From NCBI GenBank assembly GCA_963663765.2, contig CAXXUA010000015.1, positions 416,001 through 480,000 on the forward strand: 64,000 nucleotides of DNA, in the 5' to 3' direction. How positions within the stretch are numbered: position 1 is the first letter of the stretch; every line of letters begins with the position of its first letter. This stretch comes from Candidatus Poribacteria bacterium (GTDB lineage Bacteria > Poribacteria > WGA-4E > WGA-3G). Under the pieces are notes generated by a model that made no database searches, was not told the DNA's origin, and saw nothing but the letters and a program-made list of their open reading frames with translations. Made by a program: the position numbers and the translations under genes. Below, piece by piece: positions 7,276-55,399 of this stretch.

Positions 7276-7288
7276 TAAAGAAATACCT

Positions 7289-8548: not shown

Positions 8549-8558
8549 GTTTTCCGTA

Positions 8559-38578: not shown

Positions 38579-39385
38579 TTAACCAACTTCCTGACCGTCC
38601 AATTTTCCAACTTGCAGGTCAATTTCCTCGCGTGACTCAATTTTTTCTACCTTGCCATCTGACATGTGAAAAATCCTGTCGGAAACATCCAGCATTTTGT
38701 GGTCGTGTGTTGCAGTGATGATAGTCACCCCGTTTTCGTCATTCAGATTACGGAGGAGATCGATGATTTCAAGTCCAGTTTTTGTATCCAAATTTCCCGT
38801 AGGTTCATCGGCAAGGACAATTGCGGGGTCATTTGCAAGGGAGCGTGCAATTGCGACACGTTGCTGTTGACCACCCGAAAGTTCAAGCGGTTTGTGTTGA
38901 ATGCGGTCACCTAAACCTACCAGAGATAGCAGATCAACCCCTTTATCTCTGCTTTCATCGGCACTCATGCCAGCAAAAATCATGGGTAACGAGACATTTT
39001 CAAGTGCAGTCATGACAGGGATAAGGTTGAAGGATTGGAAAATATAACCGATCTTCCGGCAACGCAGCCATGCTAACTCATACGCGTCCAATTGTGCTAT
39101 ATCTACTTCATCAATATAGACTCTTCCCTCGGTAGGTTTGTCTAAACCGCCGATCATATTAAAGAGCGTAGATTTTCCTGAACCTGATGGTCCCATGATA
39201 GAGATGTATTCTCCGCGTTGAATGTGGAAGTTGACTCCCCGCAATGCGTCCACAGTTGTTGTTCCCATTTCGTAGCGTTTGATTAGGTTTCTCACGCGGA
39301 CGGTGTTTTCTTTGGGTATCATACGTTCAAGTCGTTTTGGTGTTTCGGTGAGATTTGGTTGCATTCCACCCATTTCTGCTTGCAT
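38579..39385 (-). CDS. ABC ATP-binding protein, LolD/MacB type
   Basis: GPSGSGKST, IGYIFQSFNL, LSGGQQQRV, LADEPTGNLD, H-loop ATHD; GGAG RBS. Confidence 0.95.
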   Translation of the reverse strand: MQAEMGGMQPNLTETPKRLERMIPKENTVRVRNLIKRYEMGTTTVDALRGVNFHIQRGEYISIMGPSGSGKSTLFNMIGGLDKPTEGRVYIDEVDIAQLDAYELAWLRCRKIGYIFQSFNLIPVMTALENVSLPMIFAGMSADESRDKGVDLLSLVGLGDRIQHKPLELSGGQQQRVAIARSLANDPAIVLADEPTGNLDTKTGLEIIDLLRNLNDENGVTIITATHDHKMLDVSDRIFHMSDGKVEKIESREEIDLQVGKLDGQEVG

Positions 39386-39417
39386 AACTTGTGTCTCCTC
39401 TACGGTAATACTTCCAC

Positions 39418-39882
39418 CTAACCTTTAGACAAAAACCCAAATCGTCTCTGTTGTGCCGGTTTCTTTGATTGTGCTTCGTTTGGTTTCGTTTCTGTTGGAA
39501 TAGCGAATTGGATGAAGTTCCGTTTACCGAGTTGCTGGATAAAGGTAAAGAGTGATGTTTCTGCTTCTTTACGTGTTAGTTGATGTTTTTTTTGTAGTGC
39601 CTTAATAATCTGTGAAATCGTGTGGTTTCCATCACACATCTCCCATACAAAAGAACCGATTCTATCCAGTACGACAACCCGTTTATCTGGAAGCATAAAG
39701 ATTTTACTCATCAATCTCACCCAAAGTGTTTCTTTCTGAGGAATAACAAGTGATGCTTCCCCTTTGTCATCTAATTCCCAAGTAATCAGCTTATTGCGCA
39801 GCGGGAATGCTTTGAGGACCTTTCCCCTATCTACATCGGGTCGTTTTTTTAGTTTTAGGTTGTAAAGAACTTTGTTGAGCAT
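39418..39882 (-). CDS. PqqD family / RiPP-recognition-element protein
   Basis: VVLDRIGSFVWEMCDGNHTISQII..L..K..L...EAETSL..FIQQL.KR.FI is the PqqD winged-helix pattern. Confidence 0.85.
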   Translation of the reverse strand: MLNKVLYNLKLKKRPDVDRGKVLKAFPLRNKLITWELDDKGEASLVIPQKETLWVRLMSKIFMLPDKRVVVLDRIGSFVWEMCDGNHTISQIIKALQKKHQLTRKEAETSLFTFIQQLGKRNFIQFAIPTETKPNEAQSKKPAQQRRFGFLSKG

Positions 39883-39914
39883 TTCTTATATACTTATCAA
39901 AGTAAAGTCTGATG

Positions 39915-40208
39915 TTATAAAAAATCAAACTCTTCAATCGTTTCTGCAGTAGCTGCTTTTTCAATGAGTAAATCAAGATCAGTGATTCTATGAATAGAAG
40001 CGACTTTCTGAGAAAAGTCATCTGGTATATTTTCAAATCGTATATTCAATAGTTTTAGGACGACTTCCTGTTTTGCCTGGGTTTCGCCTTGTTCTAAGCC
40101 TTGTTCTAAGCCTTGTTCTATGCCACGTTCTAAGCCTTGTTCTAAGCCTTGTTCTAAGCCTTGTTCTATGCCACGTTCTTCAAGTATGTTTGCCATAGAT
40201 TTTGCCAT
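39915..40208 (-). CDS. Small Rpn C-terminal-module protein, copy 2 (97 aa)
   Basis: Near-identical duplicate of 40234-40563 with its own ATG and upstream ttggaag; seven xE(Q/R)G repeats. Confidence 0.7.
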   Translation of the reverse strand: MAKSMANILEERGIEQGLEQGLEQGLERGIEQGLEQGLEQGETQAKQEVVLKLLNIRFENIPDDFSQKVASIHRITDLDLLIEKAATAETIEEFDFL

Positions 40209-40233
40209 GATTCTACTTCCAATAATATAGGGG

Positions 40234-40563
40234 TTAATCAATATTGTTTTGTAAATCAATTTCTTCAATCGTTTCTGCAGTAGCTGCTTTTTCAATGAGT
40301 AAATCAAGATCAGTGATTCTATGAATAGAAGCGACTTTCTGAGAAAAGTCATCTGGTATATTTTCAAATCGTATATTCAATAGTTTTAGGACGACTTCCT
40401 GTTTTGCCTGGGTTTCGCCTTGTTCTAAGCCTTGTTCTAAGCCTTGTTCTAAGCCTTGTTCTAAGCCTTGTTCTAAGCCTTGTTCTAAGCCTTGTTCTAA
40501 GCCTTGTTCTAAGCCTTGTTCTATGCCACGTTCTTCAAGTATGTCTGCCATAGATTTTGCCAT
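40234..40563 (-). CDS. Small Rpn C-terminal-module protein, copy 1 (109 aa; the original 3' end of the Rpn gene)
   Basis: GGAGG-taaaaacc-ATG; nine xEQG repeats, then LL..RF..IP...I..L.LL helical tail; in frame with 42918 once the IS is removed. Confidence 0.75.
   Translation of the reverse strand: MAKSMADILEERGIEQGLEQGLEQGLEQGLEQGLEQGLEQGLEQGLEQGETQAKQEVVLKLLNIRFENIPDDFSQKVASIHRITDLDLLIEKAATAETIEEIDLQNNID
40417..40525. repeat. 12-bp coding tandem repeat (gccttgttctaa)n encoding LEQG
   Basis: Directly visible; a second array lies at about 40086-40170. Confidence 0.95.
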
Positions 40564-40582
40564 GGTTTTTACCTCCAATTTA

Positions 40583-42115
40583 CTATAGTTTGGACAGTTT
40601 TAAGATTTTTAGTGACAAAAAGTAGAAAAGAGATTATCCTTCAAAACAAATACATTCTTTGAAAGGATATAACAATGAAACCTCTTTCCCACTTAGAGAC
40701 AATGTTATCAGAATATCAGTCGGTTTTCAAGTATAATAGTAACTTCAACCATTTTCAAACATTCGTCCAAGGTTTGATCTCTACCCCTTATCGTGGAACG
40801 ATGACACAGATATATCAATCAACAAAACCAACATCCACCTATTGGACTTTACCGAAGTTTCTATCCCGTAGCCAATGGTGTATTGATGAACTTGCATCCG
40901 TTCTGACCCAACAAGTTCAAAAAGTTTACAGCAAGGGTGTTTATGTTTATGATGAAACCAAGTCTACTAACGAGGGTCGTCATCAATATGGCACACATTT
41001 TTTCAGAAACACTCGGTATAACAAACGCAACAAAAATCAATCCAAGTTCCATTACGGCCACCAGTTTGGTGCGATCGGATGGCTCTGTGAAACACCAGAT
41101 GGCACGCGCCTGTTTCCATTGGCAGCCAGGGTGATGTGTCCGAGAAAAGAACAAGATAATAGCCTACAAGTGCTTGCGTCTATCTGTGCCAATGTGCCGC
41201 CAGGGTTGATCATATTTGATAGAGGTTTTAATAGGCGTAAAGTGTTTGCAGAGATCCTTTCACAAGGACATCATTTACTCTGTCGTGCAAAGTCTAATGC
41301 TGTGTTCTATTATATCCCCAAAGAAAAGAAACGAAAGGGACCCGGCAGAACGCGTATTTATGGGGATCGTGTGCATAAACCCTATCTAAAATATAGAGAT
41401 TTCGTCGTGGATAATGAAACATATTCTGTCACTGACAAAGTTGTGCGAACAAAGATGTGTCCACAACCCGTAAGGCTTGTTGTGATACGCAAAAAGCCAA
41501 ATCCATCTAAACCGTATAAGTATTTTTGTATGTTTACCTCTGATTTACAACTCTCCGTTGCCGAAGTAATCACACACTATAGAAATAGATGGCAGATTGA
41601 AACGGCGTTCCGGGATGTCAAACAGGAGTTTGGATTTGATACATATCAGGTCCGAAATCGTGTGAGTTTGAACCGACACGTGCAAATCAGTTTTGTGGCA
41701 GCAAGTCTCACACAACTCTGTTGGACAGATACACCGACTGATACAACATCAAACATATCATCGGATACTGAAGAAAATGATGTTCCTGATTTAGACGCTG
41801 TGCTACAAACGCTCGGTATCCATTGGTATAAACCGAAATATCTAACACGTGGATTAATGGTCGCTTATTTACGCTTCTGTTTCCAGCAAAAATATTTTTC
41901 TGCGAGTAACGATCAAAAACAAAACTCAAAGAAAAGTCTAAAAATAGTGGAAGATACGACATGAACTTAGCAGATTTTTGTATTTTTGCGATTTTTTTCA
42001 AAAATATAGTCTAAAATGCTGTGATTTCAAACAGAAAATGAGTAAAAAAAGTGTTTACACAACAATTTTTTTCGCTGTTGAAAGTCCTGACAGGTTTAAA
42101 CTGTCCAAACTATAG
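40583..42115 (+). mobile_element. Intact insertion sequence, IS4 superfamily (IS4/IS701-like), 1533 bp
   Basis: 18-bp perfect TIR ctatagtttggacagttt; 9-bp TSD tccaattta at 40574-40582 and 42116-42124. Confidence 0.95.
40675..41964 (+). CDS. DDE transposase
   Basis: YDET, FDRGF and the YREK signature YRNRWQIETAFRDVK. Confidence 0.93.
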   Translation: MKPLSHLETMLSEYQSVFKYNSNFNHFQTFVQGLISTPYRGTMTQIYQSTKPTSTYWTLPKFLSRSQWCIDELASVLTQQVQKVYSKGVYVYDETKSTNEGRHQYGTHFFRNTRYNKRNKNQSKFHYGHQFGAIGWLCETPDGTRLFPLAARVMCPRKEQDNSLQVLASICANVPPGLIIFDRGFNRRKVFAEILSQGHHLLCRAKSNAVFYYIPKEKKRKGPGRTRIYGDRVHKPYLKYRDFVVDNETYSVTDKVVRTKMCPQPVRLVVIRKKPNPSKPYKYFCMFTSDLQLSVAEVITHYRNRWQIETAFRDVKQEFGFDTYQVRNRVSLNRHVQISFVAASLTQLCWTDTPTDTTSNISSDTEENDVPDLDAVLQTLGIHWYKPKYLTRGLMVAYLRFCFQQKYFSASNDQKQNSKKSLKIVEDTT

Positions 42116-42918
42116 TCCAATTTAGGTACTTCTTGATCGATAAGTTTAATCAATTCCTCATGTTCATCTGCGGAACGTCTATGTAGTATCAACAGCAGAA
42201 AATAATTTATTGCTAACTGAAGTTGAACACCTTGTTCTTTATCAAGGTTGATAATGTTGGATATTGCATCAATTATTACTCTACTAATAGTTTCTTTATC
42301 AGATTGTTCTTTTTGAAGAACAGTGAGTAACCATCCAAAAGGATGACCCGATTTCGTTAACTCAGTTAAATCGGTTTCTTTTACATTAAGAAATAGGATA
42401 TCAAATTTTGGGATAAAGCCAGATAGTTCTTCTGGAATATCCATTAAAGGTTCAAGTGTAAGTGGATATTTCCAGTTTGAATCACCAGTGTAAAACACAA
42501 TTGGAAGTATTGGACGAAAACGCAATACATTTTTAAGAATATTACTTGATTCCGATTCCCTCCTTTGAAAATCCCATATTTGTGTCATATAGTATAATAC
42601 CCTAAAACCCATTGAGATATCAACTGTTGATTGATGTTCAATGAGGATATAGATGAGAATCTCGTCAGTTCCCAATTCTCGTTTAAAAGGGACACTTAAA
42701 ACAATATCTGCTTCCTGTTCTCTTAAGGTATCGGGGATAAAACTCCGGTTAATCTGTGTAAGTTGGTTAAAATCAATGTGATCTACCAACTCACGGGCGA
42801 TGATTTCCAACAATCCTCTAACGTTTTCCTTATCTTGAAGCAACCATCTGGCACTCCTGTCAGGGAAGTGTCCAATCTTGATGTCAAAAAACTTGAGTGT
42901 TTGTGTATTTAATGTCAT
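42116..42918 (-). pseudogene. Rpn/YhgA-like PD-(D/E)XK nuclease, N-terminal part (IS-interrupted)
   Basis: HFPDR..RWLL, SFIPDTLREQEADIVL, YILIEHQST, PILPIVFYTG...W; translation reads into the IS end and stops at 42055. Confidence 0.88.
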
Positions 42919-42974
42919 AAACTCTATGATACAATTGAATTTCTAATTATAATTGATACTTCTCCAATATAATC

Positions 42975-43934
42975 CTAATGGCAACGAATACTCTCAGCAA
43001 CTTGCTGCGCGAGTCTATCAGATTCTTCGTTACGTCCGATGGTTTGCACGACATAGATGCGGTTTGAATGAAGACAATGCCATATAATAAAAGTAAGTCG
43101 GACCCGTTTGCGTACTTTATCAAAAGCAAGTACGGGTGAAAATGGTATACTATCGTACATCCGTGTCTGCTGTCCAAGAAAGTATATTCGTCTATCTTCG
43201 TTTTCTTCATTCTGTTTGACATCAAATCCGTATCCACGAATTGCTTTAGCATATCGAGAGCGAAACCAAGTTTCAAGTTGATTTGGTTCTGAATTATAGT
43301 CATTTAATAGTACTTCAGCAGGACCAAAACGTTCGACACTTATTTTTTTAGTTTTACCTCTTGTGAATGCGAACAACAGGTAACCACTGAGCAGTTTCTG
43401 CTTTTCCAACTTGTAGTTGTTCGGAACAGCAAGTCTAAGACCGTATGCACTCCAGAAAGTTTGGTTCTTCTCACCTTGTTCGGATATAGATTGAAAGATG
43501 CGATGGACAGTGGGACGCCAATTCTCTTTGATTCGTCCCATAACTTGTACGATGGTGATCCGTTTTGTAGTAGGATTATGGAAGATAATACCGTTTGCAC
43601 GTATACCGCCTTTCCAACTAAAACCCAAGACGGTGTTTCCCTCTAAGAAATCTTCATCTTTGACATGTTCTACGTTTCTACGAAATGAGACGTTGCCTCC
43701 ACGTTTATAATTCTTACGGACTAATTTGAAATATTCGTCAAGGGTTTTATGAAGGTCAGGTTTCTTTTTTTTTGCTTTTGCCCATTTGAGTTCTAATCTT
43801 GGCATATCAGCATCATCTAACCGTAGATAACCGTTCTTTTCATCTCCACTGATGCCACTGATTTCCCACGTCTTAGGAATTTCTAATTGAATACCTGCCC
43901 AACCAAATTGAGTCCAATCCATATTTCTTTCCAC
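42975..43934 (-). CDS. Hypothetical cytoplasmic protein of the FtsX/OPT/PqqD cluster
   Basis: 319-aa ORF directly behind the OPT-like gene; two WxGxxLxxPxxW/Y-like repeats (GWAGIQLEIPKTW; SAYGLRLAVPNNY). Confidence 0.75.
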   Translation of the reverse strand: MERNMDWTQFGWAGIQLEIPKTWEISGISGDEKNGYLRLDDADMPRLELKWAKAKKKKPDLHKTLDEYFKLVRKNYKRGGNVSFRRNVEHVKDEDFLEGNTVLGFSWKGGIRANGIIFHNPTTKRITIVQVMGRIKENWRPTVHRIFQSISEQGEKNQTFWSAYGLRLAVPNNYKLEKQKLLSGYLLFAFTRGKTKKISVERFGPAEVLLNDYNSEPNQLETWFRSRYAKAIRGYGFDVKQNEENEDRRIYFLGQQTRMYDSIPFSPVLAFDKVRKRVRLTFIIWHCLHSNRIYVVQTIGRNEESDRLAQQVAESIRCH

Positions 43935-43950
43935 CCATGAATCACTCCAT

Positions 43951-45939
43951 CTAAAACGGTTTTACGATGACAGCTTTTGAGACCAGGGCAATTGCGACGG
44001 TACCCATCCCTATCAAACCTACACCGCAAGCAAAACCCGCCGCCAATACAGGATTGAACATAAACCATCTTTTCAGTCCGAACCGCTTAATCATGTAGAA
44101 TCTACCGATGATAGCACCGAGTAATCTTGCGACCATACTACCAGGATCATCTCCAATTCCCCCGATGATACCGTAAAACCACATTGATGGGAACTTAAAT
44201 ACCCATAGTAATCCGTAAATCGCAAGGCTTGATGTAAATCCAGCCGCGACATAATCACCGCGTATGGCTTGTAACATTTCACTATTCCCATCTCGTAATG
44301 ATGTCTTCATCAGACATTCATTTGTAGCATTAATCGGCCACATCATCTGGACAAATGGATATTGTGCACTTGGAATTGGCGCGATTTTCCAGATAAAGTG
44401 CTGTACTACAATGCCACTCACAATCAATATAGGCATAATGAGCAGCGTAGCAGCAAGGTTTGATGTAAATGTTGTTCCTGTAAGTTCAAGTACGCGCCAA
44501 CCTTGTGTACCTTGTCCGTAATCTTCGTCTGGCATCGGTGCAAACCAGATATCAATTTCTTCATACCGACTCAGTATAAACGTAATTTCATGTAAGTATG
44601 GTATTTCGAATAGGTCTCGTCCGAGTACACCAAATGTCCTTGCTGTAATGTATGAGTTTATCGGGGTATATAAGAATGCAAAACCCAAAAGGAAACTGAG
44701 TGGGAAGTTTGGTACCATCCAATGAATGAGCCATACAAATGCACCCATACCGATAAGCCAGAGTAGGCCCATAAGCCAAAGCGGAAAATCACCTCTGTTA
44801 GGAGGTGTAGCGAGTGAACCACGTTCACCGGCTTTCTTCTGTGTGTTACGAAGTTTGAAAATCATTGGTATAGAAGCTGCCATACCGACGAGACCAAGAC
44901 TAAACGTCTTACCCATACCATAACTACGCCAGAAATCAAGTCCGTTAAACAAACCAGTCGCGCGCACATCAAGTCCTGGATGCCATTGATGTAAAATCTC
45001 ATATTTATAGAGTATATGTGGGTTCAAAACAAATTGCGAAAGCATCGCGGTCACAAACTCAGACATCACGACGGGGAAGGGTAGGACGAATCCGAATAAC
45101 ATCTGTCCGAAATCTGTTCTAAGCGCGAAGACACCCGTAGGTGCAAAACCTTCAATGCTTTGTGTAAAGTCTATCCACGGAATTTTCAGTATCTGTATGG
45201 GTTGACTCATCATCACACCGCTGAGTGCTGGTACGCCGATATATATGAATCCCCATATTAAACCTGCCATTGAACCGATTGAGAAGACCTGCCATCGCCA
45301 TGTTTCTTGTTTACCGGTTGTTTCAGCCAATGCAGTTGCGCCCTGTGCTGTTATCGGTGCCATAGGATATGGCAACCGTTCAAGGTCAGCAGTAAGTCTA
45401 AACAGTATATATTGTCCACTGACAAAACGTAATGTGCCAAGGAATTTTGTTACGAGATAAATTCCAATAGGTAGAAACCAATCAGGATGCAGAAGACTTC
45501 TCTCAGCAATAGCTACAGATTCACCTGAGGGTACAACCCATGCGGGTATTTTATCAGCAATTTCATAGGATATAGCTTGTTGCGTGTTGACAAAATATGC
45601 ATACCAGATAAAACTACGGTATTGCATTCCACTACCGACTGCTGCCCCAGTGAGACTGAGCAACATATAGAGTTCCTGCCGACGTGCGGTTGTGAAGGAT
45701 CGTCTGGCTAATTCAGTGAAAAGGATCACAGCAACCCAAGGTGCAGCAGCAGCCCCAGATTGCCCAGAAACATAGCTTAGATATATGGAACCGGGCATCA
45801 TCAATAATCCAACAAAGAGTGCGCCGAAAAACACTTTGACGGTAAGTCCTGATTCAAAGGTTCTTACGCCACCTTCTATGTCATAGCGTTGTGCCCAAGT
45901 TTGCCATTCATCTGCTTGTGAGATTCTCTCTCGCGCCAA
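43951..45939 (-). CDS. OPT-superfamily-like integral membrane transporter
   Basis: Many TM segments; ERLPYPMAPI motif reminiscent of the OPT family; IPSAQYP; AAGGAG RBS with a TTG start. Confidence 0.7.
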   Translation of the reverse strand: MARERISQADEWQTWAQRYDIEGGVRTFESGLTVKVFFGALFVGLLMMPGSIYLSYVSGQSGAAAAPWVAVILFTELARRSFTTARRQELYMLLSLTGAAVGSGMQYRSFIWYAYFVNTQQAISYEIADKIPAWVVPSGESVAIAERSLLHPDWFLPIGIYLVTKFLGTLRFVSGQYILFRLTADLERLPYPMAPITAQGATALAETTGKQETWRWQVFSIGSMAGLIWGFIYIGVPALSGVMMSQPIQILKIPWIDFTQSIEGFAPTGVFALRTDFGQMLFGFVLPFPVVMSEFVTAMLSQFVLNPHILYKYEILHQWHPGLDVRATGLFNGLDFWRSYGMGKTFSLGLVGMAASIPMIFKLRNTQKKAGERGSLATPPNRGDFPLWLMGLLWLIGMGAFVWLIHWMVPNFPLSFLLGFAFLYTPINSYITARTFGVLGRDLFEIPYLHEITFILSRYEEIDIWFAPMPDEDYGQGTQGWRVLELTGTTFTSNLAATLLIMPILIVSGIVVQHFIWKIAPIPSAQYPFVQMMWPINATNECLMKTSLRDGNSEMLQAIRGDYVAAGFTSSLAIYGLLWVFKFPSMWFYGIIGGIGDDPGSMVARLLGAIIGRFYMIKRFGLKRWFMFNPVLAAGFACGVGLIGMGTVAIALVSKAVIVKPF

Positions 45940-46006
45940 TTTAAAATTACTCCTTTGTATTGGCTATCGGTTCTCAGCATTTTGTAAGCACGCTGGAAAC
46001 CTTTAC

Positions 46007-46257
46007 AGGACTTACGCACCCAACGGTAGGCGGGGAATGCCTAAAGAAGCATGCGCCTATGGCATGCTCCATGATTCATACCCGGGGAATGCCAAAAGGC
46101 ATTCATACCCGGGGAATGCCTAAATGGCATTCATACCGTTGATTTCTTGATTTCTTGATTTGGTGCTTTGTAAGCGCGCCGGAAACCTAAAATATGCTGA
46201 TAATTACATCATTTTCAACATAATTCTTGATTAAATCAAGAAAACTGTGTAAGTCCT
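46007..46257. mobile_element. MITE (AGGACTTACGCA family)
   Basis: TIRs aggacttacgca / tgtgtaagtcct; three GAATGCC-hairpin units inside. Confidence 0.8.
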
Positions 46258-46262
46258 ATTGA

Positions 46263-46454
46263 TCAATTATCGTCTTTTGGTGTTTTCTTGTCTTTTCCTT
46301 CGCTGAGTTCTTCCCAAAAATGTGCAGAGAAGATTCCTATTGTTAAGATGAGTGCTGCGAACATCTGCCATTGCCAACGTCCCCCTAAGAACAGGATACT
46401 GATAAACCATAAGATTGTACCGATGACAATTATTACGCTTGCTAACCTTTCCAT
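46263..46454 (-). CDS. Small two-TM membrane protein (63 aa)
   Basis: Two hydrophobic helices and a charged tail; AAGGA RBS; starts 37 bp after the stop of the giant gene. Confidence 0.65.
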   Translation of the reverse strand: MERLASVIIVIGTILWFISILFLGGRWQWQMFAALILTIGIFSAHFWEELSEGKDKKTPKDDN

Positions 46455-46491
46455 AATTATTTGTTCCTTAATTAGAGAATTTTGGAGAATA

Positions 46492-49400
46492 CTAATCCGC
46501 GGTAGTCAAGACAGGTTCTAATCGTGCGGTTTCTTCAACAGTATCACTGCTTTCATTTCTACCGCGTTCATGGAATTCTGATCGGATATCAACACTGAAT
46601 GTCCGCCATATCAGTAATTGTTTACGCAACAAATTCAGGAAACGCCGATTGACACGTTTCCATGATGCGATCTCACCACTTTCACGGTTTACCTCTAAAG
46701 TGATTTTGAATAGATCTTCCTCTTCTCCACCGACAGGTGAAGTGACAAATTGAATAGATTGACTCACACCTAAATCGTAAGGAGCTAACCATACCATCAT
46801 ACCAATCTGATATGAATCGTCACCAGTAGAACTAAATGCTACATTGTCGGTATAGAAATCGCTTGCAGACTCATCTGCGTGTGCATCAAAGTAGTCACGC
46901 ATAAAGACGTTCAAACCGAGTGCTTCTTCAGCTAAAACGGTAAACGGTAGATTGAAATGCCACACATCCCCCTCAGGTTCAGGTAATTTCCATTTACGTT
47001 CAATATCTGGTACAGCCATACGTGATGCTTTTATTGCAGGATATAACGTGCTGAGGAGCACTACAATCATTACAATCACTGTAGCGATAACAGTAGACAT
47101 AGATGAGTAATTAAGTGTTAAACCTGCAAGTAGTCCGAAATGCACCAATGTTGTCGCGATGACCTGTCCCATCAGATACCCAAGAACTGCCCCTACTATT
47201 GCATACACACACGCTTCGGCAAGGAAGAGGAAGGCGATATGTGTAGGTGCAAGACCGACAGAACTGTAGATTCCTATCTCGCGCACTCGTTCATACACTG
47301 CACCTAACATGGTATTCAAGACAATCAAGGCAGCAATGAGAATTGGCACAAACAGGTTACCCATTCCACTAAAACTTGTCATACCGATACTGCTGTAAAG
47401 ATAGGTGTCTTTGTCGCGTCCCACGAAGAAATCAAGTGCAATACGGTTCATCAAAGGTGCCATGATGAGATCAAGTTTATCAATTGCACCGATAAGTTCT
47501 GGATCATCCTCTCGTGGTTCCATATTAACTGCCACACTTCGTAGCGTTCCGCCTTGGTTCATCACGACTTCATAGGGTAAAATTGCAATGCTATCCGGTG
47601 TGAGGTGTAGGTATTTCTGAAGTTCTCCTTCAAGTGTTTCATCACCTGTACCACCTCGACTACGTTGTTGTTGCATCAATTGGTAGTCAACAGGAGTCAA
47701 TTCTTCTCCGTCATTATCAGTTAAATCTTTGAACCCTATCCCTAAAACACCAACAACAGTGAAGTCTGCTCCATAAACAGAGATTGTAGCTTTGCCCATA
47801 TCATTTTCTGTTAGTTTCAGGAGATCTGCCATCCCTTTCGGTAGAACAATGGCGTAGGGCCATTCAGTTGGCCAATTCTCCGCATCTTCACGGTTAAACC
47901 ATTTGCCGTATTGTAAATAGCGATCAATACCTGTAACAGAAGGTTCAGTCTCACTCATGCCTACCAGCATGTTCGCTGCAAACTTTAGTGCTTCACCGTT
48001 TAATGGATGTGTTGGTGGTGACGAGTCTTGTGTGTTTGCTGTTCGCGTCAGTTGTACGAAGGATTGGTCGCCAGTCCCAGATGACTGATACCAAGCACGC
48101 GGGGCAACAATATTCTGAACTGTAAGTACTGGTTCCTCATCAACGTTTTCAATATATCCACCTTGCTGCAGTTGTGCAATTGCATTCGGTATATCAACTA
48201 ATGGTTGTCCCTGTTTTCCTCTGAGTAAGTTTTTCTGTTCCAGAAGTTGTTCTAAATCAAGCACAGAAATTTGTGTTTTCTGCATGTCGTTAAGAATGGA
48301 ATTCAGGACAGGTTCTTCAAGTGGTCGCCAATACTGGTCTCGGATGAGTAAGCCTGTGTAACTTGGTGTAACTTGTGGCAAACTTGTTCTGTTGGGACGC
48401 ATAAATGTCCGCACAGACGTAAACGAAATGACTGTGAACGTGAGGATAACCAAAGTTGCACACGTAAGGATAGTTCGACCTTTTCGTTTACGCATATTAG
48501 AAATACCGAGACTAAATGCTGCTGCACTTGCACTGAGTCTACCGACATCAGCTTTGTAGACCTTGTTCCCACGTTGACGAATTTTCTCAAGTTGCTCCTC
48601 AAATTTTCTAACAATGATACTAATTACAATTACCGTCAAAGCAAGAACAACGAAAGCAATCAGTATTATAATCGGCGTGGTCGTAATTTGGAATGCTGGG
48701 TGTACCTGGCTTAAGAAATAAAACACAAGTAAGAATATTCCGAACGTCGCTAAAATCTGTCTATTAATGTTTGTGAAACCAAATATGAGACGTTCCATAA
48801 AGTATGCAAATGGCATCAAAAGAGCGAGATAGAACATAATACCATTAACGACATCATTTCCAGTTTTTTTAACGTCAGGATATGCACGGGATTCATAACC
48901 CCATGCTGCACGCGCTAACTTGAGTGCTTGCTGATAGTCATTCTGATATAGCGCAGTTTCTGCTCTTGTAAGATATTCGTCAGCAAACTTGTGTAGTTTA
49001 TCAAGACGGTCGCTTGAGATGCCGAAACGTTTGTATAGTCTGGATCGGTTTTCATCAAGCCACCACATATCGCGCACCACAACATAAGGTGTGAGACGTA
49101 TGCTTCCATTTTCCCGTACAACAAATCCTTCACCCGTATAAAGCGTTGGGTTTTTCATCCCACTCTTTGTTGCTTTAATCAGCAGCAAACGTTTACCTAT
49201 CTGTCCGTACGCCATTCCGATTTTTATTCTACTTTGAGGTTCGCTGTAGACAAGTGCAATTGGTTCAGCGGCAGAAACACCTTCCTGTTGCCACGGTTTA
49301 GAGACACCGTATTTTTCTGGAGGACTATCGGACAGTGCGTCATATACCTCTAATTCACGTAAGGTGCGCAGGTAACGTTGGTCAACTAAGTCATAGATTG

Positions 49401-52400
49401 TCGTGGATACACAAGGGAAGGTTACAACGCGACATCCACGACGGCGTGTGTTAATAGGTACTTTATTCGGTAGGAGTTTTGCTCCGTAATTCCCCAAGTC
49501 TGGTGCATAGACAATGTCACCGGAATCTGGATCGAGAATATAAGCTTCTACTTCCTGTGCTCCACCGAGTCTACGGGTAGCTCTACCCTCCATTGCCAAC
49601 CCAGCAACCTCAAAATTACCTTTATTGTCTCCCATTGCGAATAGGTCACCTCGCACACCCATCATTGTCTTATGTTTTCGTCGGAGCGTTATGATTGGAT
49701 AAGGTACGGGTTTATTTGGTAGTGCAGATTCACGAGCATCAAACTCGACTACATCTCCGAAAAGATTACAATAGAAGTTTCCGACTCTTGCAGCTGTTGG
49801 CATCCGCGGGTCGCGTAATGCTTGTATTAGAATTGATGCCAAAGTCATTGCCTGTTGATGTAAGTTACCATCTTCACGTAGGTCAACGCGGTCAATCGTA
49901 TCCAGTGGGGTGTCTGTGAGTACTCTTGCATCTTCTATAGTAGCAAATGCTATACCCGTTTTACCAACGAGTGTCGCTACCTCACTGTCAAAAGCAATTT
50001 TTCCTGGGATATAGGTCTTCCATGTTTTGCCGCCACTTGCGGATATAGCGTTGACAAAGTTTGAGCCACCCCCAAGTCCGACGATTGAAATCAGTGTATT
50101 GATGTCATCAATTTCATCTTCAGTAAATGTGTCTGGGTCTTCGTGTCGGAGTCTGAGCATGGCATCTAACTTACCACGCATGCGTATACTGTTTTTTCTG
50201 TTTTTCTTCGCGTTACGTACATCGTTTCGGATGAACCGTTCCACCTCTTTTCGGATGTAATCCATATCTTTGAGCATATCTTCAGAGGGTTCGCCACGAC
50301 TTCTCCACTGTTCAAACTGCATCCGCATCAGACGACTCACACCACCTAAACCTGTGAGTTTACCATAGTGTGCACTCAGTAGTGTTTCAAGTGTTTTGCC
50401 TTCAAGGTTGGCTTTATCGGAAATCTGGCTTGAAACCGACCATTGACGCGCCATCACTGCCTGGCGAATTTGGTCGTCAGTCGCGCGCCACAGTTTTCTT
50501 ACTCTGACTCCGAAATCCGCATCTGTTGCATAAGCTGCCAGTTTATTACCAATACTTGCAAATTCACGTCTGAGTACAAACTCAGGTTGTTGGTCATAGA
50601 ACCAACCTTTGTTGAAAACACCGAACTGATTAGATTGAGAGGATAGATCTATGCTACAAAAAAGTGAGGTATAATACCGATTGAATAGGTCCTGAAGGGC
50701 GATTGCTGCTTCAATCTGTGCTAATTTGCGATTGTATTCATCCTCGCTAATACGTGCCATCTTTTGAACCCGACTCTGTATGTTACGGAACCTTGCATTC
50801 CGTAAAGTCAACATGTTGTCACGCAGAAGCACCTTTATCTGTACATCTAAATCTGTTATTAGTGAGGGTAGATTTTCAATGAGATTATCCAAAGCAACTA
50901 AATCTGCATCAGCATTAATTCTTACTGTCTGTAGGATTTGTGTTTCCATGAGATATGCAGAGATTAACTTTCGTTTTTCAATTGCTTGTTTAACCTCGTC
51001 ATTTGTTAAATGACTCTGTAGGATTAATAACTCCTCATCCAGATATTCACGCGTAAGTGATCCGTGGGAGTCAAGAAGGTTTTGGATACGTCTGCTTTCC
51101 AAACGTGCGTTCCGTAGAGCGATCTCAAATATCCCCTGCTTATCACGTGTCAAGTCTTTTATCAAACCGTCTTCACTATCTACCATACCCTCCCCAGCTG
51201 CTGCTTCAGTTAGCCGTTGCCGTATTTGGTCATTGATACTAACAATACGTTCTTGTGATGCAACAGTAAGATACTGTTTTCCAATTTCAGATGGCAAGTC
51301 ATGCACACGATCACTGCTTAACTTTGTTATTGCATCTTTAATCTGCACATCAAGAGATGAACTATCATTTAAGTTCTGTTGAACTTTCTGAAGAAGTGCT
51401 TTCTCACGAGATATAGCTGCCTCTTTAGTCTCTTTAGTATTCGCTATTATCTCTCGCGCATTTCTGGCTTCCCTAAGTGTAGGTAGGTCTAAATGACGGT
51501 CAAGTATCTTATCGGGTGTCCACATAAGAGCAAACTTTCGTTGGTCACTCATTTCCCAGTTGGCAAGGTTATTATTTAACTTTTCAATGTCTGCGAGCAG
51601 TTCAGGAGGGAGATCACTTGGAGTTGGTACTACATAATTTGACCCGTCTTTTTCGGGTAATAGGTAGGATGATTTCGGATGTGTGCCGAATTTATCACCG
51701 ATCCTATCCGCATCAAGTTCTCTAATCAGTCTGTCCACTGCCCATGTGTCTAAACGTGCTATCGGTAGAGCGATGTTATTTATAAGATCTATCTGTGCTT
51801 CTCTGCTTGTTTCTAATGCAGATGCACGTATCTGACCAAGACGTTTGACAATTTGTCTGAGGAAGTGTGTTGTTTGCAATGCTTCTTTTTCAAAACGTAC
51901 AAGGTTTGCATTTAATCTTGATTTTTCTTCCTCTGTAAATCCCTGTTTTTCACGTTTTCTTTTTCTTTCTGCATCTTTTTTCTGTCTTTCTGAATAATCA
52001 CGTTGAGCTCTATGCAGCCAATCAATCTGTGAACGTGTAGAAGCAAGTCCTTCAAGCGTTGTAGAAAGTGATTCTATATCCTCTTTTATGCCGTGCACAC
52101 CAAAATAAAACTCTGTGTCCAAATCAACCAAAATGCTCCGATCAATAGATAGCAAGAGTTTACGTCCTAATTCTTCAAATTCTATTATATCGGTGGATAA
52201 TCCGCGCCGTAATCCTTGTAAGGTAGGTGTACCAGGTGAGTCAGTTGCAGAACCTACGATGTCTTGTCCAATTCCTTCCATGAAAGCACGCATCCCAGCT
52301 AACCCTTGGAAATGCGCGTCTACAGCAACAAATAGCACTGAACGTCCTGGGCGGTATTGTTGATCTGCAAACAGTCGTGCAAGTTCCATCAGCACAGCAA

Positions 52401-53760
52401 TACCACAAGTTGGATCCGCTCCGGGAGCGAGTGCGGGAACAACTGACATGGAATCATAATATGCGGTAAGGACTACCAACTCATCACGTAATACGGGGTC
52501 TCCACCTTCTAAGAATCCGCGGATGTTTTGACCCTCGCGCCGTTCCCATTTCATTTTGCCACGCAATCGGACATTGACAGCCTCTCCAGTGGATAGGAGT
52601 GTTTTCAGTTGTTCAGCATCTTCTTTGGAGACCCAAAAACGTGGTATATTAGCCGGAACGGTGAGAAACTTGTTCTCTGCTTCACCACGAATTGTCGATT
52701 CAGGTTCAATGAATACAACTGCTGCGGCGCCTAACATAGCAGCGTTAATCCATCTCGTACCAGAATTAAACTCCGCAAGAACGACAGCACCCTTTGGAAT
52801 GAAGATGTGAGATTCACTTGCTGCAACAAATTCGCCAGTTTCGTCAATTTGTCCGTCATTGTTGTTGTCAATCCCATCTGTTTCATCACCCGGTCTCTCG
52901 TCAGTCCATCCATCCGCATTGTTGTCAATCCCATCTGTTGCCCACCCATGTATCTCTGATAGCAAAGGGATCTCACCATATTCGTCAACGATGCCATCTT
53001 CATCGTTGTCTATCCCATCGGAAGCCTTTTGTAGATGACCATTAAGAACATCGTCTGTAATGCTTGCTTGTGTCACGCGAAACCGTCTTGCCAGTGATAC
53101 AAGTGTATCTCCCTCTTGCAGTCTATACCAATATCCACCAACGTTACTTCCATTGAAATCAGCAAGTTGTGCATCATCCGCATAAAGCAAAGGACCGGTA
53201 AGACCACCCGTTGGAATGAAGACTGTATTCCCTTCAACAACTGGTGAGGGTAAGTTTTGGTTATGCGGATTCTCTATAATATCAGTTAGGGGAATAGCAT
53301 AGTTTTCGGCTATTATTTTGAGGGTTTCACCTACTTCAACAGTATGCTTTATTCTATCGGTAAGCAGTGAAGTCCGAACAAGGTTGGGCCATAAGGCTTT
53401 AAGAGGAAATGCTTGTATTACTGTACCATCAGAACCAAGGATTTCAATAGCACTATTACCATAGTCTATTGGAACTGTGACAGAGAATTCTCGACTTTCA
53501 ACATTCTTCAAACCCATTTCAACGAAACGGTCGAAAATGTATTTACTGCCATTGGCTGCCTGTGGATATCCAGTAACACGGCTTTCTAAACTGGATAGAC
53601 GTGCAAGGTCTTTACGGATGTTACGAATAGATACATCATCGCGAATCTGGATTGCAGATTCCGACAATCCTAACTTTTTTTCTCCATCTGCAGCATTACT
53701 ATAAGGAATGCTACAACAAAAGACTAATAATAGCGTTATAGAATAATACCAATACCTCAT
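46492..53760 (-). CDS. Giant LysM / M28-peptidase-like / FtsX(MacB)-type ABC permease fusion (~2422 aa)
   Basis: GAGG RBS and ATG at 53760; signal peptide; two LysM domains; three DGIDNxxDGxxDE repeats; M28-like fold; C-terminal TM block with NMRKRKGRTILT and ERVREIGIYSSVGL (FtsX). Confidence 0.85.
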   Translation of the reverse strand: MRYWYYSITLLLVFCCSIPYSNAADGEKKLGLSESAIQIRDDVSIRNIRKDLARLSSLESRVTGYPQAANGSKYIFDRFVEMGLKNVESREFSVTVPIDYGNSAIEILGSDGTVIQAFPLKALWPNLVRTSLLTDRIKHTVEVGETLKIIAENYAIPLTDIIENPHNQNLPSPVVEGNTVFIPTGGLTGPLLYADDAQLADFNGSNVGGYWYRLQEGDTLVSLARRFRVTQASITDDVLNGHLQKASDGIDNDEDGIVDEYGEIPLLSEIHGWATDGIDNNADGWTDERPGDETDGIDNNNDGQIDETGEFVAASESHIFIPKGAVVLAEFNSGTRWINAAMLGAAAVVFIEPESTIRGEAENKFLTVPANIPRFWVSKEDAEQLKTLLSTGEAVNVRLRGKMKWERREGQNIRGFLEGGDPVLRDELVVLTAYYDSMSVVPALAPGADPTCGIAVLMELARLFADQQYRPGRSVLFVAVDAHFQGLAGMRAFMEGIGQDIVGSATDSPGTPTLQGLRRGLSTDIIEFEELGRKLLLSIDRSILVDLDTEFYFGVHGIKEDIESLSTTLEGLASTRSQIDWLHRAQRDYSERQKKDAERKRKREKQGFTEEEKSRLNANLVRFEKEALQTTHFLRQIVKRLGQIRASALETSREAQIDLINNIALPIARLDTWAVDRLIRELDADRIGDKFGTHPKSSYLLPEKDGSNYVVPTPSDLPPELLADIEKLNNNLANWEMSDQRKFALMWTPDKILDRHLDLPTLREARNAREIIANTKETKEAAISREKALLQKVQQNLNDSSSLDVQIKDAITKLSSDRVHDLPSEIGKQYLTVASQERIVSINDQIRQRLTEAAAGEGMVDSEDGLIKDLTRDKQGIFEIALRNARLESRRIQNLLDSHGSLTREYLDEELLILQSHLTNDEVKQAIEKRKLISAYLMETQILQTVRINADADLVALDNLIENLPSLITDLDVQIKVLLRDNMLTLRNARFRNIQSRVQKMARISEDEYNRKLAQIEAAIALQDLFNRYYTSLFCSIDLSSQSNQFGVFNKGWFYDQQPEFVLRREFASIGNKLAAYATDADFGVRVRKLWRATDDQIRQAVMARQWSVSSQISDKANLEGKTLETLLSAHYGKLTGLGGVSRLMRMQFEQWRSRGEPSEDMLKDMDYIRKEVERFIRNDVRNAKKNRKNSIRMRGKLDAMLRLRHEDPDTFTEDEIDDINTLISIVGLGGGSNFVNAISASGGKTWKTYIPGKIAFDSEVATLVGKTGIAFATIEDARVLTDTPLDTIDRVDLREDGNLHQQAMTLASILIQALRDPRMPTAARVGNFYCNLFGDVVEFDARESALPNKPVPYPIITLRRKHKTMMGVRGDLFAMGDNKGNFEVAGLAMEGRATRRLGGAQEVEAYILDPDSGDIVYAPDLGNYGAKLLPNKVPINTRRRGCRVVTFPCVSTTIYDLVDQRYLRTLRELEVYDALSDSPPEKYGVSKPWQQEGVSAAEPIALVYSEPQSRIKIGMAYGQIGKRLLLIKATKSGMKNPTLYTGEGFVVRENGSIRLTPYVVVRDMWWLDENRSRLYKRFGISSDRLDKLHKFADEYLTRAETALYQNDYQQALKLARAAWGYESRAYPDVKKTGNDVVNGIMFYLALLMPFAYFMERLIFGFTNINRQILATFGIFLLVFYFLSQVHPAFQITTTPIIILIAFVVLALTVIVISIIVRKFEEQLEKIRQRGNKVYKADVGRLSASAAAFSLGISNMRKRKGRTILTCATLVILTFTVISFTSVRTFMRPNRTSLPQVTPSYTGLLIRDQYWRPLEEPVLNSILNDMQKTQISVLDLEQLLEQKNLLRGKQGQPLVDIPNAIAQLQQGGYIENVDEEPVLTVQNIVAPRAWYQSSGTGDQSFVQLTRTANTQDSSPPTHPLNGEALKFAANMLVGMSETEPSVTGIDRYLQYGKWFNREDAENWPTEWPYAIVLPKGMADLLKLTENDMGKATISVYGADFTVVGVLGIGFKDLTDNDGEELTPVDYQLMQQQRSRGGTGDETLEGELQKYLHLTPDSIAILPYEVVMNQGGTLRSVAVNMEPREDDPELIGAIDKLDLIMAPLMNRIALDFFVGRDKDTYLYSSIGMTSFSGMGNLFVPILIAALIVLNTMLGAVYERVREIGIYSSVGLAPTHIAFLFLAEACVYAIVGAVLGYLMGQVIATTLVHFGLLAGLTLNYSSMSTVIATVIVMIVVLLSTLYPAIKASRMAVPDIERKWKLPEPEGDVWHFNLPFTVLAEEALGLNVFMRDYFDAHADESASDFYTDNVAFSSTGDDSYQIGMMVWLAPYDLGVSQSIQFVTSPVGGEEEDLFKITLEVNRESGEIASWKRVNRRFLNLLRKQLLIWRTFSVDIRSEFHERGRNESSDTVEETARLEPVLTTAD

Positions 53761-53837
53761 ATAATTCCTCAAATTCTTGTTTTGACTTTTCTTAGTGTAA
53801 CAAATATTTGAAATTATTTCAATAGAAAATAAAGTGC

Positions 53838-54024
53838 AGCACTTACGCAAAAACGGTAGGCGGGGAATGCATAAAGAAGCATGCGCGTATGGCATGCTCC
53901 ATGATTCATACCGTTGATTTCTTGATTAGGTGCTTGTAAGCGCGCTGGAAACCCATAAAAATGCTGATAATGACATCATTTTCATCTTAATTCTTGCATT
54001 TGATCAAAAAAATGCGTAAGTCCT
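53838..54024. mobile_element. MITE (AGGACTTACGCA family)
   Basis: agcacttacgca / tgcgtaagtcct ends; internal sequence shared with the other copies. Confidence 0.78.
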
Positions 54025-54157
54025 GAAGAGGAAGGTTGAATTGTATTTTATGTCAACTCGGTTGAATCATGAATATATAACGGGAGATCAATACCAGAAG
54101 AGAAGTAATGCTAACAACGCATGTCTATCGTTTGAGAATAATGTAAACCGAAGTAAA

Positions 54158-55399
54158 TTATGTATGTCGAATGGCATCAATTGGACTTAATTTCGCAGCT
54201 TTGCTTGCGGGGTAATAACCAAAAAATAATCCGACAGCAGTTCCAGCTGCAACGGAAGTGAGAACTGATCTTATAGTAACAACAGATGGCCAACTCATCA
54301 TTCCCATCAAGAACTTATCTACTGCCCAAGCAAAACCTTGTCCAACAAAGGCTCCCAGAATTATACCAAGTATACTTCCAAAGAGACACAATAGTATTGA
54401 CTCAGTCAGGAATTGAAAGCGGATATGGTATGTTTTTGCACCCACTGCCTTTCTTAAACCAATTTCGGGGATTCTTTCTGTAACAGATACGAGCATAATA
54501 TTAAGGATACCGATACCGCCAACAATTAGTGCTACAGAAGCGATAACTACTAACACCATTTCAATAATAAAAATTGTCTTCTTAGCACTTTCAATCCCTT
54601 TCTGAGCTTGCCATGTACGAAAAAATGTGTCATCTCCATCGTGATTACGTCGGATGATTGTTTGAACTTCTTTGACTGCTTGGTCAACCTGGAACGGACT
54701 TTTTGCACGGACCATAATATGCCCAACGTTTTCATGTCCCCAAAACCTTGTCTGTGCAGTTGTGATTGGAATGAAAATCATATTGTCATCGCTTTTGCCC
54801 TGTTCTAAGCCAGGTCCTCTGCTTTCCATAATTCCAATCACAGTGAAACGTTTGTTATTTATTCCAACCTCTTTTCCAATCGGATCCAAACCCTTAAACT
54901 GTTCTTTCCAAACTTGCGAACCGATAACGCAGACCTTATTCCAGAAATCCATATCTGTGTCAGCAAGAAATCTTCCATACTGACTGTGCCACTGCCGAAC
55001 TGCTTGATATTCTACGGTAGTCGCTCGCATGTAGGTCGGTTGATGTCTTCCGTGAACATCAAAACGGATATAATAACTACCTTCAACTGTAGCAACTTCC
55101 ACAGATGGACATTGATTCTGGACATCGCGTAAGTCAGTCATATTCAGATGGTGCGGACTTGTATTGCGTTGCCAACGATTGTTTTTTCGTATATATCCAG
55201 GACGGTAAACCCCGAACATGCTGGGACCACCTATCTTCTCAAATTCCAACAGTATGAGTTTTTCTGCTCCTGCCCCCAACGACATCATCGCAATCACACC
55301 AGCAATTCCAATGGTAATACCTAACAAGGTTAGGATCGTTCGGAGTTTACTCGCACGAAGTGCTGAAAGAGCAGTTAGCAGGTTCTCTATAATTCGCAT
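54158..55399 (-). CDS. MacB-like ABC transporter permease (MacB_PCD + FtsX)
   Basis: KLRTILTLLGITIGIAGVI, GGIGILNIMLVSVTERIPEIGLRKAVGA, YPASKAAKLSPIDAIR. Confidence 0.95.
   Translation of the reverse strand: MRIIENLLTALSALRASKLRTILTLLGITIGIAGVIAMMSLGAGAEKLILLEFEKIGGPSMFGVYRPGYIRKNNRWQRNTSPHHLNMTDLRDVQNQCPSVEVATVEGSYYIRFDVHGRHQPTYMRATTVEYQAVRQWHSQYGRFLADTDMDFWNKVCVIGSQVWKEQFKGLDPIGKEVGINNKRFTVIGIMESRGPGLEQGKSDDNMIFIPITTAQTRFWGHENVGHIMVRAKSPFQVDQAVKEVQTIIRRNHDGDDTFFRTWQAQKGIESAKKTIFIIEMVLVVIASVALIVGGIGILNIMLVSVTERIPEIGLRKAVGAKTYHIRFQFLTESILLCLFGSILGIILGAFVGQGFAWAVDKFLMGMMSWPSVVTIRSVLTSVAAGTAVGLFFGYYPASKAAKLSPIDAIRHT

Follow-up and report, generated by a model that had tools for sequence, protein, structure and literature searches.

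The stretch of DNA described here, hereafter the window, comprises 64,000 nucleotides of the genome of a Candidatus Poribacteria bacterium (positions 416,001-480,000 of contig C15 of genome G000; genome total 6.35 Mb). It carries a minus-strand gene cluster around a giant permease in which LysM-like motifs, an M28 peptidase-like fold and an FtsX-type membrane module are fused, followed by genes for a 63-aa membrane protein, a 662-aa polytopic membrane protein of predicted oligopeptide transporter (OPT)/yellow stripe-like (YSL) fold, a 319-aa cytoplasmic protein, a PqqD-like protein and an ATP-binding cassette (ABC) ATPase (Table 1). A preliminary description of this DNA had listed these six genes, together with a MacB-type permease gene upstream of the giant, as seven minus-strand open reading frames (ORFs). 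All seven are present, and the Pfam scan and repeat matches also bear out the short gaps, miniature inverted-repeat transposable elements (MITEs) and Rpn/insertion sequence (IS) insertion that it placed between them. Protein families in the window were assigned with Pfam and NCBIfam; an Rfam scan of the window gave no family. The giant, 1500-2400 aa long across its homologues, is one permease subunit whose extracytoplasmic N-terminus has a PA/M28 aminopeptidase fold. Its gene is kept beside that of the OPT/YSL-fold carrier and usually also with genes for a LolD-class ATPase, a small FtsX-only protein, a tandem PsbP-like protein and a PqqD-like protein.

Table 1. Features of the cluster and of its surroundings in the window. 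Residue numbers of the giant follow the 2467-aa ORF (46492-53895); the public 2422-aa gene call begins at Met46 (position 53760), before the signal-like segment. TM, transmembrane segment.
Feature	Window position	Giant residues	Strand	Basis
ABC ATPase, LolD/MacB/FtsE/YbbA class, 268 aa	38579..39385		-	Pfam, NCBIfam, tblastn
PqqD-like (RRE-type) protein, 154 aa, cytoplasmic	39418..39882		-	PF05402 45 bits (1.4e-11), cut-off 23.4
ORF fragment, weak DUF4351, mobile insertion	39915..40367		-	PF14261 6.1e-4, under cut-off
IS transposase (DDE_Tnp_1/DDE_5), same insertion	40675..41964		+	Pfam
Rpn/YhgA-like (Transposase_31) ORF, same window-specific insertion	42055..42918		-	PF04754 3e-26
Cytoplasmic protein, 319 aa, tandem PsbP/Mog1-like domains	42975..43934		-	AlphaFold2, Foldseek, hydropathy
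OPT/YSL-fold polytopic membrane protein (predicted), 662 aa	43951..45939		-	AlphaFold2 model, Foldseek, PF03169 matches of homologues
Dispersed MITE-like repeat	45940..46262		.	94 matches in the genome
Small membrane protein, 63 aa	46263..46454		-	tblastn in 34/38 Poribacteria-like loci, 0/41 others
Giant permease	46492..53760 (ORF to 53895)		-	Pfam, translation, public 2422-aa gene call P0126, BLASTP, hydropathy, composition
Signal/anchor		~46-69	-	translation/hydropathy
Two LysM-like motifs		~184-300	-	Pfam LysM
Three DGIDNxxDG acidic repeats		293-350	-	
PA domain		367-430	-	weak Pfam PA
M28-like N half, non-canonical active site	52261..52527	457-545	-	alignment to 1AMP/2ANP
Charged insert, ~725 aa, splitting the M28-like fold	50086..52260	546-1270	-	BLASTP, composition
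M28-like C part		~1273-1340	-	
Conserved region without assigned family		1340-1680	-	
Three extra TM		1682-1760	-	hydropathy
MacB-type TM1		1808-1826	-	hydropathy
Periplasmic domain		1827-2181	-	hydropathy
FtsX-type C-terminal permease domain, TM2-4	47017..47349	2182-2284	-	PF02687 48.1 bits, cut-off 25.5
Cytoplasmic C-terminal domain, conserved, no known family	46495..47043	2285-2467	-	conserved in L094, L099
Copy of the dispersed repeat	53896..54157		.	49 matches in the genome, including the copy at 46147-46257
MacB-type permease, 413 aa, not a conserved cluster member	54158..55399		-	MacB_PCD 4.5e-42, FtsX 4.9e-20

Pfam matches of the giant to FtsX (1.4e-12), Peptidase_M28 (1.3e-09) and LysM (2.8e-06), with weak matches to PA and MacB_PCD, support the LysM/M28-like/FtsX fusion proposed earlier. 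The FtsX match (PF02687) spans residues 2183-2293, and the hydrophobic segments of this module (1808-1826, 2182-2200, ~2223-2251 and 2266-2284) give a topology of four transmembrane (TM) segments by hydropathy. Between TM1 and TM2 lies a loop of 355 aa, for which MacB_PCD (PF12704) reaches 19.3 bits, under its cut-off of 27, and the last TM segment is followed by a tail of 183 aa. With the N-terminal 1600 residues placed outside, the loop falls outside and the tail is cytoplasmic, which is the MacB/FtsX topology. The giant scores far under the NCBIfam cut-offs for the named members of this fold (LolC 34 bits vs 473, MacB 30.3 vs 966, FtsX_Gneg 15.8 vs 255). The possibility that it substitutes for FtsX was dropped because the same genome has a separate FtsX-like gene (G000:C6:235371-236210). 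PDB sequence searches with residues 1270-1700 and with the C-terminal domain gave nothing usable, and all scores of the C-terminal domain against the ESM Atlas were below 0.9.

The M28-like fold has a modified active site. Peptidase_M28 (PF04389) matches residues 457-540 with 38.5 bits (cut-off 21.3), corresponding to the first 78 of 193 model positions, and the PDB matches of this domain include the Aeromonas aminopeptidase (AAP) with an E-value of 2.3e-5. The comparison to AAP (1AMP/2ANP) covers the N-half positions His97, Asp117, Glu151 and Glu152, i.e., co-catalytic zinc ligands and the catalytic Glu. His97 corresponds to position 479 of the giant, a Tyr in the window and, among 54 sequences, Tyr in 47, Phe in three, Ser and His in one each and a gap in two. 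Asp117 is retained as Asp494 (Asp in 31 sequences, Glu in 20 and Gln in three), Glu151 is replaced by His528, which is His in all 54, and Glu152 by Phe529 (Phe in 45, another residue in nine). With Tyr in place of His97 and His-Phe in place of Glu151-Glu152, the site departs from the canonical di-zinc peptidase type but is nonetheless under selection. Judged from this alignment, the M28-like fold of the giant thus lacks the canonical zinc and catalytic residues. The same region has weak sequence matches (E 1e-3 to 5e-2) to nicalin, glutamate carboxypeptidase II (GCPII) and transferrin receptor (TfR) chains, and the giant of locus L099 has a weak Nicastrin Pfam match; at these E-values we regard the nicastrin-type similarity as an analogy of use rather than as membership. 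Nicastrin and the transferrin receptor have lost canonical catalytic residues, and both, like nicalin, use the PA/M28 fold as a receptor-type ectodomain.

BLASTP aligns the giant with homologues of 1581 aa (L094) and 1621 aa (L099) over the PA/M28-like N half (366-540) and from ~1273 to the end. The intervening charged insert, in which E, K, R, Q, D and L make up 48.8% of the residues and which we assume to be helical or coiled-coil, has a counterpart of only ~95 aa in the Armatimonadota-type giant of L094, indicating that the ~725-aa insert is a Poribacteria feature. The M28 and FtsX fusion itself is present in four of the five distant giants scanned. These elements recall FtsEX-EnvC, in which a type VII ABC system is paired with a coiled-coil activator whose peptidase fold is catalytically dead (PMC7668044, PMC12646458). 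A system of this kind would remodel the envelope: the inactive peptidase domain of the giant would position or activate a wall hydrolase, the OPT-fold protein would recycle the released peptides, and LysM and the long charged insert would assist in Poribacteria. The LysM motifs and the 725-aa insert of the Poribacteria giant would fit such a role, as would the near-universal presence of the cluster in the order described below. Nevertheless, LysM and the long insert are absent from all five distant giants scanned, no hydrolase gene is conserved in the cluster, the genome has its separate canonical-type FtsX, and the PqqD and 319-aa proteins would be left without a role, so that we consider envelope remodelling unlikely.

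The 662-aa protein itself has no Pfam or NCBIfam match (none to PF03169 at E<=1), and neither single-sequence nor profile searches match it to the PDB. PF03169 is reached by four of its 15 aligned homologues (best 6e-12). Its AlphaFold2 model (mean pLDDT 74.8, pTM 0.78) aligns in Foldseek over the whole length with barley Yellow Stripe 1 (YS1; 7wst_A) at an E-value of 6.5e-10, with TM-scores of 0.62/0.68 over 675 columns. YS1, to which the identity is 15%, is the only family at E<=1e-3, the next match having an E-value of 1e-2. The fold match and the four homologues support the OPT-like call of the preliminary description, and we assign the protein the OPT/YSL fold on the basis of the predicted model. 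We know of no characterised bacterial member of this OPT branch. The 63-aa protein encoded between the giant and the OPT-like gene has no Pfam or NCBIfam match; it had been called a two-TM protein, of which one segment (4-22) passed a 19-residue hydropathy scan while the second hydrophobic stretch is visible by eye only.

The conservation of the cluster was followed in loci sampled with one genome per species. Of at least 579 pattern matches, tblastn bore out 483, and the 80 best of these yielded 79 loci, each with no more than 10 kb of flank per side; the window proteins were then searched against these loci by tblastn (E<=1e-5). These comprise 38 Poribacteria-like loci (OPT-like identity 57-94%) and 41 from other phyla, with titles naming Armatimonadota, Planctomycetota/Brocadiia, Nitrospiraceae, WS1, Abditibacterium, Zipacnadia, Desulfobacterales, Gemmatimonadota and Latescibacterota; many loci of the second set are short or cut off. 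Of 41 genomes of the order, the present one included, 38 carry the OPT-like gene. In the Poribacteria-like loci, the giant lies upstream in 37 (the one exception, L032, lacks a flank on that side); 37 also contain the 319-aa and PqqD genes (L049 ends right after the OPT-like gene) and 36 the ATPase gene (L047 and L049 are cut off). The order giant, (63-aa), OPT-like, 319-aa, PqqD, ATPase holds in all that could be assessed, and also in several Armatimonadota and one Desulfobacterales genome. Among the 41 loci from other phyla, the giant is directly upstream of the OPT-like gene on the same strand in 26, with a cluster-type ATPase in 11, the 319-aa protein in 11 and PqqD in eight. ORF-level maps of these loci show two layouts, namely giant, OPT-like, 319-aa, PqqD, small FtsX, ATPase (L064, L080, L084, L090, L092, L094) and small FtsX, ATPase, giant, OPT-like (L071, L074, L079, L099). 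The recurring gene order and the adjacency of giant and OPT-like genes across phyla indicate a conserved functional module. The co-location of homologues in other genomes, on which the preliminary description had made its proposal depend, is thus found, and the proposal stands in this respect. In L061 (3481-5120), L071 (11515-12441), L074 (10401-11480) and L079 (12134-12865), a prepilin-type (N_methyl) DUF1559 gene lies directly 3' of the OPT-like gene on the same strand.

The ATPase was correctly placed by the preliminary description in the LolD/MacB class: its best NCBIfam matches are LolD, YbbA, DarD and DevA, each below its equivalog cut-off, and the cluster ATPases of other phyla are 65-72% identical to it. 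In every non-Poribacteria locus with the ATPase, a small FtsX-only gene adjoins it, encoding a protein without a periplasmic domain whose called length is mostly 203-242 aa, with a maximum of 280 aa in L064. This member had been overlooked in the earlier gene list. In this genome it lies on another contig: an orthologue (225 aa, 46% identical) is found on contig C5 (L108, i.e., G000:C5:664000-680000, 5607-8595), where an IS605-type TnpB gene sits between it and a paralogous ATPase gene (252 aa, 61% identical to the ATPase of the cluster). This off-cluster pair may represent the absent half of the transporter. The 413-aa MacB-type permease, which had been counted as part of the machine, is placed outside the module: in all four other genomes searched, its best orthologue is either on a different contig from the cluster or separated from it by more than 1 Mb. 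Likewise, in 6-7 kb of added sequence upstream of the giant in eight Poribacteria loci, no match to it exceeded 60 bits, the level above which matches were kept. As the adjacency is not kept in these loci and genomes, this permease was dropped as a candidate partner of the giant.

On the cytoplasmic side, the cluster encodes the 319-aa and PqqD-like proteins. The former has no TM segment by hydropathy and no Pfam or NCBIfam family; a PDB sequence search gave nothing usable and the ESM Atlas unnamed clusters only. Its AlphaFold2 model (pLDDT 89.2, pTM 0.85) matches PsbP chains with a Foldseek probability of 1.00 (TM-scores relative to the target of 0.47-0.64) and aligns over its full length with the two-domain type VI secretion immunity proteins Tli4/TplEi. 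In a profile search of 1.84 billion representatives, 1952 clusters matched with E<=1e-3, of which 1207 reach 1e-10 and 410 reach 1e-30. Among the 150 matches listed, lengths are 199-432 aa, mostly near that of the query, so that no large fusion of the family is apparent. A CxxC and a C-terminal Cys-His (CH) are kept in most lineages and lost in the genus of the window, where the CxxC position reads HNPTTKR. The PqqD call made earlier holds by Pfam, all NCBIfam PqqD-type models being under their cut-offs. In the ORF-level maps, the two genes are always adjacent and frequently overlap. The check by complex prediction that had been proposed for this pair gave a score of 0.46 (best of three controls 0.00), weak support by a benchmark in which 58 of 80 solved complexes and 2 of 110 mismatched pairs attained the mark, with only seven of those 80 complexes and both mismatches at 0.60 or under. 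At least 63% of contacts agreed between runs, and the partner pLDDT was at least 67. An uninterrupted 378-aa ORF with PqqD (89-140) and FtsX (251-369) domains at L081:13367-14503 was not used as evidence. None of its 120 listed relatives has both domains, the closest being a 211-aa FtsX-only call, and it may be a one-off or a start-codon artefact.

PqqD domains and the related RiPP recognition elements (RREs) bind the precursors of ribosomally synthesized and post-translationally modified peptides (RiPPs) in the cytoplasm. Together with the clustering of the PqqD, 319-aa and ATPase genes, this would fit an export route, in which a cytoplasmic peptide is held by the PqqD-like/319-aa pair and leaves through the OPT-fold protein, and the periplasmic domain of the giant expels or places the cargo as in MacAB or PvdRT. 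Type VII ABC systems indeed act on cargo already outside the cytoplasm (PMC5985334). Neither the window nor the distant loci, however, offer a conserved precursor-like small ORF or a modifying enzyme. No RiPP-type enzyme, as the preliminary description had stated, and no RiPP precursor with a maturation enzyme beside the RRE were found among the scanned window ORFs of at least 120 aa, and no such family recurs in the distant loci. Moreover, the cluster showed no gene for a membrane-fusion protein or an outer-membrane channel, and all characterised OPT/YSL carriers work, to our knowledge, as importers. A gene kept by 38 of the 41 genomes of the order also points to housekeeping rather than to a secondary metabolite. 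We therefore hold export to be improbable.

Instead, we tentatively propose that the cluster represents a conserved, so far undescribed type VII (MacB/FtsX-fold) ABC system with a dead-peptidase receptor and an OPT-fold carrier, a reading that is plausible, if short of probable. Its proteins may form one complex that acts on a peptide or glycopeptide, as the preliminary description had suggested. The ATPase would drive a MacB-type 'mechanotransmission' movement of the giant, which probably pairs with the small FtsX protein as a heterodimer. The dead-peptidase ectodomain, which in Poribacteria LysM would anchor to the wall, would serve as a receptor for a free peptide end, by analogy with nicastrin or the transferrin receptor, and the ATP-driven movement would hand over the captured peptide-like ligand to the OPT-fold partner. 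Each known type VII ABC system acts on a periplasmic partner (PMC12646458, PMC7668044), and MacB homologues do not seem to carry substrates through the cytoplasmic membrane (PMC5985334). Since MacB-fold proteins lack a path across the membrane, the ligand would cross through the OPT-fold partner, most likely inwards if the analogy with characterised OPT/YSL carriers holds. The PqqD-like/319-aa pair would bind the ligand or the transporter on the cytoplasmic side.

Several observations weigh against this proposal. The invariant His at the Glu151 position could reflect residual or different chemistry instead of a dead site. Candidate substrates include a peptide, a muropeptide or a metal chelate, and both the ligand and the transport direction are purely conjectural. 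The link between the giant and the OPT-like protein is an argument from gene adjacency only, and in 15 of the 41 non-Poribacteria loci the OPT-like gene has no adjacent giant; in three genomes whose OPT-like locus has none adjacent, giants are found elsewhere. The 319-aa and PqqD pair is missing from many loci with giant and OPT-like genes. The pairing is also not exclusive, as illustrated by genome G041 with three giants: the first lies beside a DUF6785-like gene, the second is flanked on one side by a DUF6785-like gene and on the other by an additional OPT-like gene (38% identity), and the third lies beside a 617-aa ORF without assigned family. In addition, a 3.1-kb mobile-element insertion cuts the operon of the window upstream of the PqqD and ATPase genes.

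Such observations would be expected if the genes were neighbours only, i.e., if giant, small FtsX and ATPase made up one ABC system, and an OPT-type carrier with accessories of its own worked independently of it, the two being linked only by shared regulation or chance synteny. The occurrence of OPT-like genes without a giant, the other membrane proteins that giants adjoin and the insertions tolerated between operon genes in several Poribacteria all speak for it. Yet adjacency with gaps of tens of bases is kept in Poribacteria, Armatimonadota, Planctomycetota/Brocadiia, Nitrospiraceae, WS1, Abditibacterium and Desulfobacterales, and such tight adjacency across phyla is hard to keep without functional coupling, which makes mere neighbourhood quite improbable in our view. 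The other neighbours are in part of one kind. DUF6785+DUF6784 polytopic membrane proteins (~570-745 aa) adjoin giants at L077:12-3834, L078:2874-4874, L099:7887-9899, L109:13369-15444 and L110:4141-6378, suggesting that giants pair with large polytopic membrane proteins, of which the OPT-like ones are the commonest in the sample. An E-R-L-x-F-P motif is common to the DUF6785+DUF6784 proteins and the OPT-like family; as hidden OPT relatives, the DUF6785 proteins were rejected after a profile-profile comparison that was not significant (probability 0.3% and 0.8%).

The insertion is specific to the window. The spacer between the 319-aa and PqqD genes measures 3.1 kb here vs tens of bases in sister loci such as L022, and the Rpn/YhgA-like ORF is not at this place in them. 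Insertions of 0.6-5 kb among the 319-aa, PqqD and ATPase genes are seen in other Poribacteria (L025, L036, L038, L021, L058); this stretch tolerates or attracts mobile elements, with the genes staying intact. The dispersed repeat of the two larger intergenic gaps is partly organized in tandem arrays (e.g., C4:790708-791443) and is heavily represented in contigs of sponge RNA libraries. Only 6-7% of sampled words were found in six RNA-library runs. When four RNA runs were compared with 42975-53895, short contigs (47-424 nt) fell inside the giant and one inside the OPT-like gene; cover was heavy on the multi-copy repeat only and zero contigs crossed gene junctions, and the RNA libraries may hold DNA.

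No characterised system or publication with this architecture was found, in agreement with the preliminary description; the search covered open literature without supplements, leaving subscription journals outside. Within it, FtsX occurs with PqqD, DUF6785 or DUF6784 in no paper, no paper has three of the terms FtsX, M28, PqqD and 'oligopeptide transporter', and no relevant link of FtsX to M28, nicastrin or Poribacteria appeared. The one paper in which FtsX and 'OPT family' co-occur is a transporter census.

Type VII ABC systems drive efflux, lipoprotein release, control of wall hydrolases and lipid extraction through differing periplasmic partners. If true, the proposed machine would extend these by a new working principle, in which ATP drives the hand-over of a ligand to a secondary transporter, and offer a first functional handle on three large families, namely the bacterial OPT branch, the tandem PsbP-like family (1952 clusters) and the M28-FtsX giants. 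In a more speculative form, which we regard as rather doubtful, it would be the first type VII ABC machine with a fixed connection to a secondary transporter: an ATP-driven lever capturing a peptide-like ligand by its dead-aminopeptidase receptor and loading or unloading an OPT-fold channel, with PqqD/tandem-PsbP docking on the cytoplasmic side, as a housekeeping envelope system of Poribacteria, Armatimonadota and several little-studied phyla. Nearly all Poribacteria, sponge symbionts according to run labels, have the cluster, and it is common in Armatimonadota; it therefore likely matters for how these cells handle peptides or their envelope.

Elsewhere in the window, a 3394-aa ORF (24891-35075) contains many TPR repeats and a LamG-like domain; the sole tRNA call of ARAGORN (tRNA-Tyr, 34763-34841) falls within this ORF and is probably spurious. 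At 8559-10500, the genes of an AAA_15/AAA_21 ATPase (485 aa) and of a 163-aa protein without family overlap and may form a two-gene defence-type pair. Upstream of the 413-aa permease, a divergent gene (57993-59879) encodes a 628-aa protein with a trypsin-like peptidase domain and many TPR repeats.

When compared with known systems, the accessory proteins of the cluster have partial counterparts. A PqqD-fold protein beside a partner protein and an ABC ATPase is reminiscent of RiPP pathways with a PqqD/RRE chaperone, such as those for pyrroloquinoline quinone (PQQ) and lasso peptides, but no precursor, radical-SAM enzyme, protease, cyclase or other maturase was found at the cluster. The 319-aa model consists of two domains in tandem that resemble PsbP/Mog1-fold proteins (PsbP, Tli4/TplEi), whereas the protein is cytoplasmic, without signal peptide and without sequence similarity to them. 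Similar to OPT/YSL carriers (PF03169; barley YS1, 7wst), the 662-aa model matches the whole fold (TM-scores 0.62/0.68); unlike them, it has no Pfam match and no PDB sequence match even by profile, with an identity of 15% to YS1.

Nicastrin, nicalin, the transferrin receptor and GCPII likewise place a PA and M28 fold on the outside of a membrane complex, but they are eukaryotic, have one TM helix and contain no ABC module. FtsEX-EnvC also combines a mechanotransducing ABC system with a non-cutting peptidase fold and, as in the Poribacteria form, a long charged or helical element; EnvC, however, is a separate M23/LytM protein, in contrast to the fused M28 fold here, for which no amidase partner was seen. 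With the type VII ABC systems as a whole (MacAB-TolC, LolCDE, FtsEX-EnvC, YbbAP-TesA, BceAB), the giant shares the FtsX-type permease module of four TM segments with a large loop between TM1 and TM2, a separate LolD/FtsE-class ATPase and a periplasmic partner domain on which ATP-driven movement would act (PMC5985334, PMC12646458). It differs from LolC/E, MacB and FtsX equivalogs by scores far under those NCBIfam cut-offs. Its partner, the M28-like domain, belongs to the same polypeptide and precedes three extra TM segments; the giant also carries a cytoplasmic C-terminal domain of ~180 aa of no known family, and its likely dimer partner is an FtsX-only protein without a periplasmic domain. Finally, unlike in those systems, an OPT-fold carrier, PqqD and tandem-PsbP proteins are its conserved neighbours.

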